From Escherichia coli (GTDB lineage Bacteria; Pseudomonadota; Gammaproteobacteria; Enterobacterales; Enterobacteriaceae), in NCBI RefSeq assembly GCF_001677475.2, contig NZ_CP015229.1: a DNA stretch of 64,000 nucleotides; one strand, given 5' to 3'. A program made the translations under genes and the position numbers. Below the pieces are notes generated by a model that saw only the letters and a list, made by a program, of their open reading frames with translations, did not search any database and was not told where the DNA came from. Shown piece after piece: positions 29,927-63,064 of the stretch; within the stretch, counting starts at the first letter, position 1, and the number at the start of each line of letters is the position of its first letter.

Positions 29927-32074
<2,148 letters not shown>

Positions 32075-32089
32075 AGGTCTGGTATTACT

Positions 32090-32190
32090 TCCGGATGCGG
32101 CGTGAACGCCTTATCCGGCCTACAAAGCCTTTTTAATTCAATATGTTGCATGGACTATGTAGGTCTGGTAAGCATAGCGCATCAGGCAGT
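32090..32190. repeat. REP elements (two units) between cmoB and torZ
   Basis: CCGGATGCGGCGTGAACGCCTTATCCGGCCTAC and a second GCGCATCAGGCA unit. Confidence 0.7.
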
Positions 32191-32238
32191 TTTACGTTTG
32201 CATAACCTCAGCGCCCGTTTCCGGGCGCTTTTCACGTC

Positions 32239-34668
32239 TTACGCCTGAACAGCTGGCTGATCAAACGCCGTTAACTTCGGTGCATTGCCCGTATATTTTT
32301 CGATATACACCAGCGCAGAGTTACCGGCACAGGCATTTGCCAGCTGAGAGCTGGGGATATCCGCCGTTAACACGTTCGCACTGCCGTTTTTACACAAGCC
32401 ATTTTCCAGATCTGGCCATGCACCTTCATGCACGCATACCACGCCTTTTTTGATCCCGTCAGTCACCACCGCGCCTGTCAGAATCTGACCACGTTTGTTC
32501 CAGACACGCACCAGATCGCCATTCGCAATACCAAAGCGAGCAGCATCTTCGGTGTGAATAGTGATCGGTTCACGATCGGCAACCGCATATTTTTTACGCA
32601 GTTCCGCATAGTTAAGCTGACTGTGTAAACGGTGTGCCGGATGTGCGGTCAGAAGCTGCAACTGCTTATCGTCGGCGGAACCTTTCCACTCATCAGGCGC
32701 AAGCCAGGTTGGGTGTGCCGGGCAATCCTTATAGCCAAATTTTTCCAGCGTTTTGGAGTAAATCTCAATTTTGCCGCTTGGCGTACCCAGCGCATTTTTC
32801 ACCGGATCGGCGCGGAAATCACCATAACGAACGTACTGTTCGTTCTTCTCGCTGCGGCGCATTTCGATCAGTTTATTTTGCTGCCAGAAAGCATTAAACA
32901 TCGGCATAGTCACGCGTTGCGCACGCGCACCTTTCTGAGCGGCATCATAGAAAAATTTCAGCCACGCCATTTCATCTCTACCTTCGGTATAGATCTCTTT
33001 TCCGCCAGGTTTGAGTAATTCAGCAAGATCGGCAAACACGTCAAAATCGTTACGCGCTTCAAATTGCGCAGCGACAGCCTGCTTCATCGGTACAATATGC
33101 TGGTTGCTGTAATCACCGGTCATCGTCAAGTCATTGCGCTCAAACGATGTGGTGATCGGTAATACGATATCTGCATGTTTAGCAGCTGCGGTCCAGTAGC
33201 ATTCAGAAACGACGATCATCTCCGGTTTCTGCCATGCTTTAATCAGACGATTAGTATCCTGGTGATGGGTAAAGTTACCGCCACCCGCCCACCAGATCAT
33301 TTTGATATTCGGATACGTTTGTTCTTTACCGTTATGCTGATATTTGCCGCCAGGATTTTCCAGCGCATCGACGATACGGGCAACAGGAATCGCCGTCATT
33401 CCGCCATCATCAGCGGCCTCGCTGGCCTGTCCGGCAATCGCCGCAGACATTTCCGGCAGCACGCCGCCAACACGCGTCGGGTTGCCACCGTTTGAGTAAT
33501 GATAAGAGAAACCAAACCCGCCGCCCGGTGTACCAATCTGCCCTAACATCGCCGCCAGCGTCACCAGCATCCAGTGTTTCTGTTCACCATATTGCTGGCC
33601 CTGAATTCCCCAGCCAGCCATCAGCATTGTGCGATTCGCCGCCATCAGTTCAGCGAGTTTGACTATCTGCGCTTCCGGTACGCCAGTAATTTCCGCCGCC
33701 CAGGCCGCGCTCTTCGGGGTATTATCGCTCTTACCTGTCAGATACTCTTCAAACTGCGGATATCCGGTAGTGTATTTTTCAAGGAACACTTTATCGTGTT
33801 TGCCTTGTGTCATCAGGGTATGCGCGATCCCTAACATCAGTGCCACGTCGGTGCCCATATTCGGCGCGATCCAGGTGGCATTATCGCCAAAGAATTCGAT
33901 GGTTTCGGAGCGGATAGGATCAATGGCAATCACTGGTTTGCCAGATTTTTTCAGCTGATGGAAGTATTCCAGCCCTTGCTCATCGGTACTGCTCCAGGCA
34001 ATTTTTAAGGTATTCAGCGGGTTCATCCCCCACAGCACCACAACCTGGCTGTTTTCCAGAATCAGCGGCCAGGAGGTCTGCTGTTCATACACCTCTACAG
34101 AACCGACCACATGCGGCATGATCACCTGTGCTGCCCCGGTTGAATAATCGCCGCTATGCCCGGAATAACCGCCCGCCAGGTTCATATAACGTTGCAGTAA
34201 GGTTTGCGCTTTATGCAACACGCCAGAAGAGCGCCAGCCGTAAGATCCGGCAAAAATGGCCGATGGTCCGTTAGCTTTACGAATACGATCATGTTGCTCA
34301 TGAATCAGTTTTAATGCTTGTTCCCAGCTCACCTGTACATAGGTATCTTCGCCACGACCTTTTGCCGGTTGCAGTGGATTATCGAGATAGCTTTTTCTCA
34401 CCATCGGATGCTGAATACGCGCCGTGGTGTGTACCTGATCCACCGCCGTAGACTGTAAGGAGTTCGGTATAGTTTTCGCCAGCGCGCCTGTTGAAGAAAC
34501 AATCTTGCCGTCCTTCACTTCTACGTTCATCGCTCCCCAACGGCCAGCGGTGAGGATTTTACCGCCCTTCTCTTCTGCCCATGCGGGTAGCGGTGCAGCC
34601 GATGTCACCACCAGCGCCCCAGCGGCAATACCGCTGTGTTTAATAAATTCACGTCTTGTTAATGTCAT
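32239..34668 (-). CDS. torZ: Trimethylamine-N-oxide reductase 2 catalytic subunit (molybdopterin), Tat signal
   Basis: 809 aa from [31 protein letters not shown] (twin-arginine signal); DMSO/TMAO reductase family. Confidence 0.93.
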
Positions 34669-34692
34669 AACTTCCTCCCTGATCAACGAGGA

Positions 34693-35793
34693 TCACTGTT
34701 TCTCGGTAATATCTTTGGCGTTGTACTGGAAGTACCGCGTCAAAATGTCCAGTTCGTTTTCGCTCATGCTGGTTCGCGCCCCCATTCCTTTGGCAATGGA
34801 CGGCCATGCATTGACGGTGTAATGGTCAGCGGCAATAGGCGCATGGCAACCAGCGCAATAGGTATCGTCAAGTTTTTCAGCGTATTGCCATAGCGGTTTA
34901 CGGTCCGCTAATGCGGGATCGGTAAGCGCACCCTGTAAAGACGCCTGACGCCATTGATTGCCGTATTCGTCAGCCTGCCATTCCCCGTTTACCGTGAGCG
35001 CCTTGATACCTTCTTCACTTAATGTGGCTAACGCCAGCCGTTGACCTGCCGCAAGGTAGAGCGTGTTTTCACTGCCCTGCATTTGATAACCCTGCAACAG
35101 AACGATCGGCTGTTTGCCACTGGCATCAACGACGGTGAGATCGGTACCAGGATTCACAGTAGCCAGTTCACCTATGCGAGAAGTTTTGAAAGGATAAATA
35201 TGTACGCCATTAGTCACTGAAGTAGCGGCCTGACTTTCCAGCTCATGCGCCGCGTTGTCATCCATTTTTATTTCTGGCGGAAAATGAGTAATGCCTTTAT
35301 GACAATCGATACAGGTTTCGCCGCCCTTTTGTGCTTTGTTATGCATTTTCTGCGCAGATTCACTTTGCGAGGCAATATCCATGGCATCAAAAGAATGGCA
35401 ACTACGGCACGTTGCAGAGTCAGTGGCTTTTAATTCTTTCCATACTGTTTCGGCCATTTCCTGGCGATGTGCTTCGAACTTATCGTCACTGTCTATTTTG
35501 CCGCTAACAAATTCATGATAAATATCTTTAGATGCTTTTAATTTAGCGAATAAATAATCCATCCCTGACTTTGGAATATGGCAATCGGCACATTCCGTAC
35601 GTATCCCTTTCTGGTTCGAAAAGTGGACAGTTCCCTGATATTCCTCAAAAGGTTTACTCATCGAGTGGCAGGAAAGGCAAAATGCGGTATCCGACGTTTT
35701 ATGTAAGACTTTTTGCGCCAGCAATAACCCGCCGCCACCCACCACTACTGCCATGAGCAGAAAAAATAACCAAATGCGTTTTTTCCCTCGCAT
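34693..35793 (-). CDS. torY: Pentaheme c-type cytochrome (NapC/NirT/TorC family), electron donor to TorZ
   Basis: 366 aa; multiple CxxCH motifs (CLSCH, CADCH, CRSCH, CIDCH, CAGCH). Confidence 0.93.
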
Positions 35794-36088
35794 AGATTCC
35801 TCTAATTAAATTCCAGTACACCGAACTAGTTGTATAAATAAATACACAACGAATTAATAACTCACTAAATTCGGCACAACACTGCCTGAAATAATCGACA
35901 AAGAATATGATTTATTGCAATTTAACCATTAATTATTAAAGAAGAAAGCAGTCGTTATTTTTAATACATATTTGGTAGTTTTAATAATTTAAATTACATA
36001 GCTAATATGAATATATATAACATTTTAGCAGCATGAATTTTCGCACTATCACACGATAGCTGTTCATTTTTTATACTGTTCAAGGATA

Positions 36089-36121
36089 AAAAAAGGCCCC
36101 TGTTGAATGGGCAGGGGCCTG
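36089..36121 (-). terminator. Rho-independent terminator downstream of cutC
   Basis: GGCCCCTG-TTGAATGG-GCAGGGGCC hairpin with a U-run on the minus strand (A-run on plus). Confidence 0.75.
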
Positions 36122-36166
36122 GTACGAGCAAGCATCATATTGGGCGACATGATGCAACGGTAAAAA

Positions 36167-36922
<756 letters not shown>

Positions 36923-36926
36923 TTAA

Positions 36927-37493
36927 TTACGCCGACTGCTCGCTGGCAACGATCTCTTCAATGGACCACGGATGAAATTTAATGGTCGTTTTGCCATCGG
37001 TGACCGCCAGCGTCGGATTCGGTAATCGTTCATGCTCACCTTTTGGCGAACTGGTTTTAACTGAGATCCCCGGTAGGCTGAGTCCTTCATCAGAAAGCAA
37101 TGCCAGCGCACGGGCATTCAGCGTTTCTGGATCACCCGGCAGAACGATTTCAATATGTTCCCAACCTTCGTGCGGGTAACGTTTTTCCCCGGGCCACGGT
37201 AGCTCCACAATGGAAAACTGCCAGTGCGCAACCTGTACCGGTTCATGCAATTTAAACAGACAAATCGGTCTGCCATTGATCATATTTTCTGACAAAAGCT
37301 CGCCGCACTGTTCAAACCCGCGACGCCAGCGTTCAGCTGTGGCGTTTTGATGGCAACGCAAAGAAATGTGATCGGCAGTCAGCGGAGTGATATCCAACCC
37401 CAGACGGCGGGAAAGTTCATCTAATGCGTGGGTAAATCGCGGTAAATCCGATGCAATATCCTGCAGCTCGTCGATAGATTGCCAGTTCGCCAT
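36927..37493 (-). CDS. yecM: VOC/glyoxalase-fold protein
   Basis: 188 aa from MANWQSIDELQDIASDLPRF. Confidence 0.88.
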   Translation of the reverse strand: MANWQSIDELQDIASDLPRFTHALDELSRRLGLDITPLTADHISLRCHQNATAERWRRGFEQCGELLSENMINGRPICLFKLHEPVQVAHWQFSIVELPWPGEKRYPHEGWEHIEIVLPGDPETLNARALALLSDEGLSLPGISVKTSSPKGEHERLPNPTLAVTDGKTTIKFHPWSIEEIVASEQSA

Positions 37494-55112: not shown

Positions 55113-55374
55113 TATTCCCACCCAGAATAACCAACTTTATTTTTATGCGGTCTCACCGCACCCCGTGATGTCGCCGGGAAGCCCCGGTAAAAAATAATTA
55201 GCATTAGAATAGTTGCGATAAGCTGCAATAGGCAGAGCCCCTTTTTGGGATTTAATAAGTCCTTACAAATAGAAGGGGTTCTTTACACTTATCTAAGATT
55301 TTTCCTAAATCGACGCAACTTTACTCGTCACTACACGCACATACAACGGAGGGGGGCTGCGATTTTCAATAATG

Positions 55375-55390
55375 TGTGATGCAGATCACA
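55375..55390. promoter_or_regulatory. CRP binding site in the flhDC class I promoter
   Basis: TGTGATGCAGATCACA, a perfect TGTGA-N6-TCACA palindrome about 265 bp upstream of the flhD ATG, consistent with the long flhD leader. Confidence 0.8.
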
Positions 55391-55892
55391 CAAAACGCTC
55401 AATTACTTAACATAAATGTATAAGTCATACTTTTGTTTTGGGTGTATTTCAATCTGTTAAAAAGTTTTTCGCGACGCTAGCAAGCAAAAATGAAACAGGA
55501 ATAATCGAAATGGGATGTTGCGCACAGTTAAAATAACTCACCGTAAATAATCATCTGCTATAAATAATTGCTTTAATGCAATACCAGATAAGCTATTTTT
55601 AAACAGACACTTACCGCACAACAAACTAATTAAATACAAAGAAAGGCAACAATCAACTTAATGTTAATAAAATGTTTTACATATATTAACCACTTGTTTA
55701 ATATGGAGAATCAGTACATTATTTTCTTATAATTACAGTTGAAATCATATGATCACCGAGAGTGATTGATTAATTGTATTTACTAATAATCAGACTAATA
55801 TTTACCTGTTTGACTGAGTTGGGATTGCGTCGATTCTCCATTAGGAGTAAAGCTTTAATGTCACCTGAAGTTCACAGAATAAGGAACAGGTT

Positions 55893-62268: not shown

Positions 62269-62516
62269 GGTTCTCTCCAGCTTTAGTGTCGTTTTGTGTA
62301 GGGCAAAAACGAATGACTTTCGTTAAATTAATCGGAAAACAAAGCATTACCTTTTAACTAAAAGATAAGTGACCGTGTTGACATAGTTTTAGCGAGAAAT
62401 TAATTCTCCATAGGAGAGCAATATCACATCGCAGAATTACAGTGAGAACGTGCATAAATTTAGCGGGAAAAGACATAAGGGAAAGCCAATTTGTCAGACA
62501 AATTGTCGAATGCACA

Positions 62517-62545
62517 GCAGATTAATCCATAAGATTAGCTTGGAA
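62517..62545. promoter_or_regulatory. AraC binding site (araI-like half-sites) in the araFGH promoter region
   Basis: TTAATCCATAAGATTAGCTTGGAAATCCT; the ATCCATAAGATTAGC core closely resembles araI1 of araBAD as I recall it; about 250 bp upstream of the araF start. Confidence 0.5.
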
Positions 62546-63064
62546 ATCCTTGTTGTCTTTGGTACCCATGCGGGATGTCTTCTTTTTAACCACTCAATAG
62601 GCCGCATTACCTGGTGTTGAGTTTTTGAAATGGTGTAATAACCGCAACTCAAAGATGTGGAAAATGCGCGTCATTCATTTCGCCATTAATTATCACCGTG
62701 CTCATTAATTAACAGAACACGTATACTGAGAGCCATATCGCAAAAATGAAAAAACGTTTTAAAAAATCATTGCTTCATCATGAATTCAAATACACCTATT
62801 AATATCAACAAGATACAAAAAGCACCATCATTAAAATTCATTGCAGTTACATTGATTTCATCAATGAAATGTAAAAATATATAAACTTGATGATTTAAGC
62901 ATTTTCTTATACCCGTTCAGACGTTATTCTTATTTCAGATCATCGTCAGAATTGACTCCACGATCACATTTCGGACCGGCAGAAAGGAATTATTCTGCAA
63001 ACAGTAATTATGGTGTTTTGATTTATCTTGCACCTCTCCACTTCTGGATATAAGGATATTAGGT

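Follow-up and report, generated by a model that had tools for sequence, protein, structure and literature searches.

Classical examples of AT-rich promoters silenced by H-NS are those of proU, bgl and hlyE. The torYZ operon specifies a poorly understood third TMAO/S-oxide reductase, whose inducing signal has never been clearly defined, and hlyE and torZ have been named together as genes at which other regulators are masked by H-NS (PMC3688515). In K-12, ChIP-chip regions of H-NS were reported in front of torY at 1955116-1956791 under anaerobic and at 1954944-1958210 under aerobic conditions (PMC3688515 Table S3; Myers et al., 2013). These coordinates refer to U00096.2; their offset to NC_000913.3 is about +1976, a value that the peaks at napF and moaA and the SELEX coordinate of torY confirm. 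Since the K-12 spacer between torY and cutC lies at 1956157-1956464 in U00096.2, both regions cover the whole of it; they are broad (1.7-3.3 kb) and extend over coding DNA too. Genomic SELEX has placed an H-NS site in the same spacer (PMC3946193; Shimada et al., 2014), which is also bound in vitro by the sigma70 holoenzyme (PMC3946193) and by the sigmaS holoenzyme (PMC5493296; Shimada et al., 2017). An FNR peak within torZ and O2-dependent expression of torZ are seen in K-12 only in a delta-hns delta-stpA background (PMC3688515). In a uropathogenic strain, exposure to HOCl, copper or paraquat raises torZ 3-6 fold (PMC12096835), and the operon is therefore not fully silent. The idea that H-NS occupies this spacer thus already has experimental support in K-12, so that an AT-rich region of the H-NS type upstream of torY is an ordinary finding, a known kind of feature in a place where it has already been documented.

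The anaerobic sigma70 ChIP-seq list for K-12 gives 1955119 and 1958021 as peaks but no position within the torY-cutC spacer (PMC3688515). The first of them (U00096.2; at about 34756 in the coordinates used below) is anaerobically enhanced and lies inside the 3' end of torY, some 88 bp 5' of the torZ start. Standing at the edge of an H-NS region, it could mark an internal promoter from which torZ would be expressed without torY.

Regulatory DNA is itself said to be mobile: horizontal regulatory transfer in E. coli was reportedly described by Oren et al. in 2014 (PNAS), and 'switched' intergenic regions in E. coli, reportedly, by Thorpe et al. in 2018 (Piggy). Genomic SELEX by Kurata et al. in 2013 is said to have found a ModE target at torY and to have ascribed it to the promoter of a novel gene, morB, on the torY antisense strand. 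Reference lists confirm that this paper exists (J Bacteriol 195:4496). Because of that SELEX target, the ModE link is probably not new for K-12. The consensus for ModE in E. coli is ATCGNTATATA-N6-TATATANCGAT, with 20 specified positions (PMC545781); by this measure the verified operators of modA and moaA have four mismatches each, and that of dmsA three.

We analysed the torYZ locus in a stretch of 64,000 nucleotides of E. coli DNA (contig NZ_CP015229.1), here called the window, whose features are collected in Table 1. The identities of the genes at torYZ and cutC are confirmed by E. coli annotations and by Pfam matches. Position 35793 is the final base of the torY start codon on the minus strand, and the left edge of the AT-rich region is exact. 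MicL is matched over its full length (1-308) with a covariance score of 356.1 bits against a gathering score of 56 (E 1e-108). Its terminator hairpin and U-run occupy 36088-36119, with 36088 as the first base of the U-run, and since Rfam puts MicL at 36088-36395, the right edge of the AT-rich region (36090) is the U-run of the MicL/cutC terminator. A micL gene is annotated at the equivalent position in K-12, where nothing is annotated between micL and torY. The loop of the terminator reads CCCATTC in the window and CAATTTC in all other Escherichia sequences fetched. At the far end of the operon, the cmoB-torZ spacer (32075-32238) exceeds its counterpart in E. coli 042 by about 130 bp and contains, at 32091-32123, a REP-like palindromic element, and the 3' end of cmoB (31500-32074) is locally more divergent, at 87-90% identity per 100 bp. 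With the cmoB-torZ side and the torY-cutC side both variable, the two edges of torYZ are variable. Elsewhere in the window, a reading of flhB as a pseudogene was rejected as an artefact of the crude gene map, the gene being intact.

Table 1. Features of the torYZ locus and its control region; positions are those of the window.
Feature	Position	Strand	Remarks
torZ	32239..34668	(-)	809 aa, molybdopterin S-/N-oxide reductase; PF00384; 3' of torY
torY	34693..35793	(-)	366 aa, NapC/NirT-type pentahaem cytochrome c; PF03264
Recombination tract, non-coli Escherichia type	35740..36083		Spacer plus torY codons 1-18; from informative sites and identity profiles
AT-rich torY-cutC/MicL spacer (torYZ control region)	35794..36087		G+C 0.269; TpA 13.3 per 100 nt
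Shine-Dalgarno sequence AGAGGA	35798..35803	(-)	4 nt 5' of torY ATG; conserved in the Escherichia alignment
28-bp ModE-type palindrome (candidate operator)	35826..35853		TTCGTTGTGTA-TTTATT-TATACAACTAG on the torY strand; 33-60 bp 5' of ATG; weakened copy
16-nt block TTTCAGGCAGTGTTGT	35876..35891	(-)	G+C-richer; invariant in 11/11 Escherichia loci fetched, including E. albertii
Conserved block AATAAATCATATT	35904..35916	(-)	Overlaps weak TTGCAA-18-GATTAT (torY strand) and a TATGAT -10-like hexamer (opposite strand)
Promoter prediction GTGATA-19-TAAAAT	36022..36052	(-)	Counterpart of the K-12 prediction
MicL sRNA	36088..36395	(-)	Rfam RF02654; inside the cutC 3' end
cutC	36167..36913	(-)	248 aa; PF03932; upstream of torY, co-directional

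The preliminary description of this DNA had singled out about 300 bp upstream of torY as strongly AT-rich and unlike the neighbouring intergenic regions, and on both points, as on its coordinates, it was right. Positions 35794-36090 (297 bp) have a G+C content of 0.266, whereas the mean of the window is 0.507 (sd 0.047 among 297-bp stretches). This is about 5 sd below the mean and ties with 55524-55820 for the lowest-G+C stretch of that length in the 64 kb. TpA steps are about threefold enriched (13.5 per 100 nt against 4.3 window-wide), and the A/T string quoted in that description is present at 35982-36028. When the intergenic spacers of at least 100 bp within the 64-kb window are ranked on a crude gene map, the torY-cutC spacer has the lowest G+C (0.316 across its 373 bp, with the G+C-rich MicL terminator counted in), while the adjoining spacers are ordinary (yecM/argS 0.474; cmoB/torZ 0.494). 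The 5' 400 bp of torY are also low in G+C, at 0.43. This AT-richness is common to every Escherichia allele of the spacer, with G+C of 0.28-0.34 despite sequence divergence of 6-35%, and the DNA upstream of torY-like genes in other genera is AT-rich as well. Other AT-rich spacers in the window are that between flhD and uspC (55122-55892), whose lowest 297-bp G+C of 0.263 equals that of the torY spacer, and those at 62269-63064 and 23638-23812.

We consider it probable, with some reserve, that this is an H-NS-coated and intrinsically weak torYZ promoter region in which a ModE-type operator is embedded. H-NS, possibly together with StpA, would polymerise across the tract and on into the 5' part of torY, which is low in G+C, and the coating would keep RNA polymerase off promoter-like sites that are intrinsically weak, thereby holding torYZ at a low basal level. 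The ModE-type palindrome inside the tract, which in the E. coli alleles overlaps -10-like hexamers, may serve as a molybdate-responsive operator. Composition, anatomy and the conservation of the box are shown here, and occupancy of the K-12 ortholog by H-NS is shown in the literature; we infer H-NS binding to the window allele, H-NS as the cause of low expression, ModE binding to the box and the sign of any ModE effect.

As to how H-NS might recognise this DNA, a scan of the spacer with the nucleation motif TCGATAAATT (quoted in PMC7145609) gave no match with one mismatch or fewer. Three matches with two mismatches are present at a density 7.5 times the window average, as composition predicts (p=0.115). 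With no match to TCGATAAATT beyond what composition provides, H-NS would act, if it binds the window allele, through bulk AT- and TpA-richness. A high-affinity nucleation motif and intrinsic curvature are frequent in H-NS-silenced regions without being obligatory. Motif prediction did not bear out the earlier suggestion of an H-NS-bound promoter region of low expression, while comparison with H-NS ChIP data did, the K-12 ChIP-chip regions spanning the orthologous spacer. The suggestion therefore stands in part: K-12 ChIP-chip and SELEX speak for it, its argument from phased tracts falls away, and the binding data were obtained on the K-12 spacer, with which the window allele shares only about 80% identity.

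A passive origin of the composition has to be weighed against this. An unconstrained spacer could have drifted to an AT-rich mutational equilibrium, with H-NS incidental and with weak promoters, or a missing activating condition (molybdate/ModE, or oxidative/copper stress), accounting for low expression. In its rate of evolution the spacer falls only moderately below fourfold-degenerate sites (identity 0.83 against 0.71-0.73 between the window and E. whittamii), conservation is restricted to a few blocks, the promoter-like matches are weak, torZ is inducible by HOCl, Cu and paraquat, and the spacer is without a specific H-NS nucleation motif or curvature, all of which would agree with drift. 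However, the other spacers of the window have G+C of about 0.42-0.50, so that the torY spacer is exceptional, and AT-richness has been kept in all alleles and in other genera with different neighbouring genes. In K-12, moreover, the occupancy by H-NS was measured, and loss of H-NS and StpA unmasks FNR binding and O2-dependent torZ expression. We therefore regard passive drift as rather unlikely.

The second element of the favoured reading, the H-NS-coated promoter region with its embedded operator, is the palindrome. The preliminary description had recognised no regulator site upstream of torY, a view that the conserved ModE-type palindrome at 35826-35853 overturns; judged by its sequence, this is a candidate molybdate-responsive operator. 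The torY box has three mismatches to the 20 specified positions of the ModE consensus in Escherichia sp. E1V33 and in the divergent "E. coli" strain SCPM, four in K-12 and in E. whittamii, five in E. albertii and six in the window, so that the K-12 box fits as well as the verified operators. Under a first-order Markov model of the spacer, the chance per spacer of a match with four mismatches or fewer is 0.004, and with six or fewer 0.11. A position weight matrix (PWM) was also trained on 14 boxes from outside Escherichia together with the three verified operators, the training boxes being largely torY-upstream and partly homologous to one another. It gives the window box 22.0 bits and the K-12 box 27.8, where the leave-one-out range of the training sites is 15.7-28.2 and 3000 random AT-rich 300-mers reach no more than 13.0. 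Another ModE-like site, with 5-6 mismatches at 35894-35921, was rejected on its negative PWM score.

The evidence for the box is strongest in comparison: boxes of the ModE type (up to five mismatches, up to 400 bp upstream) precede torY-like genes at 17 of 19 Enterobacterales loci from 8 genera, against a background rate of one match in 162.5 kb. The genera include Citrobacter, Trabulsiella, Entomohabitans, Yersinia, Budvicia, Leminorella and Limnobaculum, and the upstream neighbours differ among them. Outside the Enterobacterales, none of six loci (Vibrio, Photobacterium, Terasakiispira) has such a box at its torY-like gene. The boxes at loci L006-L024 and L032 have 2-5 mismatches and lie 130-360 bp 5' of the torY-like genes. 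In Citrobacter, the box has the TTTAAT spacer in common with the E. coli box, yet it stands about 310 bp from the start codon, compared to 60 in E. coli.

The spacer was aligned across the window, K-12, 042, E. whittamii, E. sp. E1V33, the SCPM strain and E. albertii, to which three metagenome contigs were later added. It is mostly variable in Escherichia, with a few fixed blocks: the ribosome-binding site, the palindrome (24-28 bp), TTTCAGGCAGTGTTGT, AATAAATCATATT and the TAAAA of the predicted -10 element. The TTTCAGGCAGTGTTGT block is not present 5' of the Citrobacter torY-like genes, and no known regulator consensus matched it. For K-12, the promoter predicted in the spacer is GTGACA-18-TAAAAA (PMC3946193 Table 2). 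No strong sigma70 consensus was found on the torY strand of the spacer; the promoter scans gave weak matches only, on both strands, and a consensus scan counted fewer promoter-like matches than in shuffles. Supplements of Cappable-seq transcription start sites hold no entry at the coordinates of the torY-cutC spacer.

Some of these elements face away from torY, and the box together with the blocks at 35876-35916 might drive a ModE-dependent divergent or antisense transcript ('morB') and not belong to the torY promoter itself, a use that would be compatible with an H-NS-coated torYZ promoter. In K-12, 042, E. whittamii and E1V33, the box includes a perfect TATAAT opposite to the torY strand, with a -35-like hexamer at 17-bp spacing (9/12), and CTGCCT-18-TATGAT is found on the opposite strand in all seven Escherichia sequences. 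The antisense position of morB, as reportedly described by Kurata et al. in 2013, would fit such a transcript. Promoter-like matches of this sort are, however, to be expected in AT-rich DNA, where their count falls below that of the shuffles. The window has TATAAA in place of TATAAT, no conserved ORF or structured RNA follows 3' of the opposite-strand promoter-like sites, and ModE boxes recur 5' of torY-like genes whatever the upstream neighbour. An opposite-strand role is, on this evidence, unlikely.

Other regulators were considered for the spacer. An FNR-like half-match, TTGCAATAAATCAT (7/10), was set aside, as the supplementary data of PMC3688515, including predicted FNR sites and wild-type ChIP peaks, have no entry there, the sole FNR peak nearby being the one within torZ. 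For ArcA, a change in cutC expression is recorded but no ChIP peak at torY. Boxes for MarA/SoxS, CusR/HprR and LexA were compared by eye with consensus sequences and rejected, the spacing being wrong each time. An in-silico GalR operator with a score of 11.8, listed in the K-12 spacer at 1958198 (NC_000913.3; window about 35859; PMC5110547), adjoins the ModE-type box.

The preliminary description had also spoken of phased A/T tracts, and helically phased A-tracts could make intrinsically curved DNA that acts as an H-NS nucleation site or as a UP-like element. A/T runs at intervals of 8-11 bp do cluster locally at torY-strand spacer positions 101-129, and the AA/TT power at 10.0 bp exceeds that of shuffles in 98% of trials (nominal p=0.02). 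This peak, however, is lower than those at 15.5 and 16.5 bp and fails correction for the 31 periods tested. A Bolshoy-type wedge model predicts an unremarkable 11.9 degrees per 30 bp, where the window averages 10.7; the value is at the 80th percentile of the window and lower than in the region's own shuffles. Neither AA/TT periodicity nor the wedge model thus marks the spacer as A-tract-phased curved DNA; the phasing did not hold up, and curvature as an explanation is very improbable. That an unannotated small protein gene or small RNA explains the spacer sequence is scarcely credible, since the ORFs of 21-45 codons that overlap 35994-36192 have weak starts and share sequence with the MicL terminator, indels of 14 bp and 1 bp separate the alleles, Rfam finds no structured RNA other than MicL in the region, the fold of the putative 5' UTR (z=-1.9) is driven by the palindrome itself, and the K-12 annotation is empty there.

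The allele of the spacer in the window differs from that of other E. coli. None of 5418 complete E. coli genomes matches it at more than 80% identity, and it is about 79-80% identical to the K-12 spacer with a 14-bp indel; among E. coli spacers, identity to that of K-12 is 92-100%. The flanks are of another order: over cutC-yecM-argS the window shares 95-99% identity with each of the 5425 complete E. coli genomes that matched (best 99.0%), and at the fourfold-degenerate sites in torZ, torY and cutC its identity to K-12 is 0.89-0.95. Identity to E. coli 042 drops to 76-89% per 100 bp only at about 35700-36100. The window allele is real: over 4101 bp the NCBI contig GCA_019135775.1 is an exact match to the window, and at least 24 contigs carry the exact TorY protein. 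The flhD-uspC spacer, by its 95-99.6% identity to E. coli genomes, has not been swapped.

A metagenome scan with a window-specific 28-mer gave no match, and one with a window-specific 23-mer gave the contigs L045 and L046. In torY these are only 91% identical to the window and likewise to E. coli, yet in the spacer they are 94% identical to the window. Sites were taken as informative where K-12 and 042 agree and both differ from L046. At 34621-35731, 77 of the 81 informative sites are of the E. coli type and 4 of the L046 type; at 35740-36083, E. coli accounts for 8 of 58 and L046 for 49; at 36252-37000, the E. coli type returns with 60 of 61, leaving 1. The breakpoints thus fall at 35731/35740 and between 36083 and 36252. 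This clean switch of informative sites shows that a recombination tract of at least 344 bp replaced the whole control region together with torY codons 1-18. Divergence is far higher in the spacer than in its flanks, the allele is closer to another lineage and the breakpoints are sharp, and an import of the control region by recombination from another Escherichia lineage is, as far as sequence comparison can tell, well supported. The divergence thus reflects import and not hypermutation, because between species the spacer is somewhat more conserved than the fourfold sites, as given above for E. whittamii.

A further metagenome contig, L044, is a second and larger mosaic, in which torY and the spacer are of the foreign type and the cutC side is 99-100% identical to the window. 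It is conceivable, though we hold it improbable, that the torYZ control region is a recurrent target of promoter swapping among Escherichia species, and that the swap was selected for changed torYZ expression through the weaker ModE box and the lost -10-like hexamers. As it appears in the window, the swap leaves the torYZ enzymes of the E. coli type while exchanging the H-NS-type promoter region, the ModE-type box and the first 18 torY codons. For an operon whose induction is so poorly defined, the control region combines DNA of the H-NS type with a conserved candidate ModE-type operator and is exchangeable between species.

What is added here to the AT-rich region, the conserved candidate operator of the ModE type and the swapped regulatory region, is in both cases of a known kind. 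The closest described relative is the K-12 torY-cutC spacer, which the window resembles in position, in its flanking torY and MicL/cutC, in extreme AT-richness and in the conserved blocks; besides the lower identity and the indel, the window allele differs from it in a weaker ModE-type box and in the loss of the -10-like hexamers, which in E. coli alleles overlap the box on both strands. Like the classical H-NS-silenced promoters, the torYZ region has a long AT- and TpA-rich tract over the promoter and the start of the gene, low basal expression and other regulators masked by H-NS. Unlike them, it is without a high-affinity nucleation motif, predicted curvature or a known anti-silencer. The coding DNA of torYZ is unlike recently acquired foreign DNA, since its G+C is ordinary (0.47-0.52). 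With the ModE operators of modA, moaA and dmsA, the torY box shares the 28-bp palindromic layout, the spacing and a place in front of a molybdoenzyme operon, and its left half-site in E. coli equals that of dmsA at every specified position (TTCG-N-TGTATA); those operators have 3-4 mismatches, whereas the candidate box of the window has six. The near-identical flanks, the divergent promoter-bearing spacer, the sharp breakpoints and the allele of another lineage are, finally, what the window has in common with switched intergenic regions.
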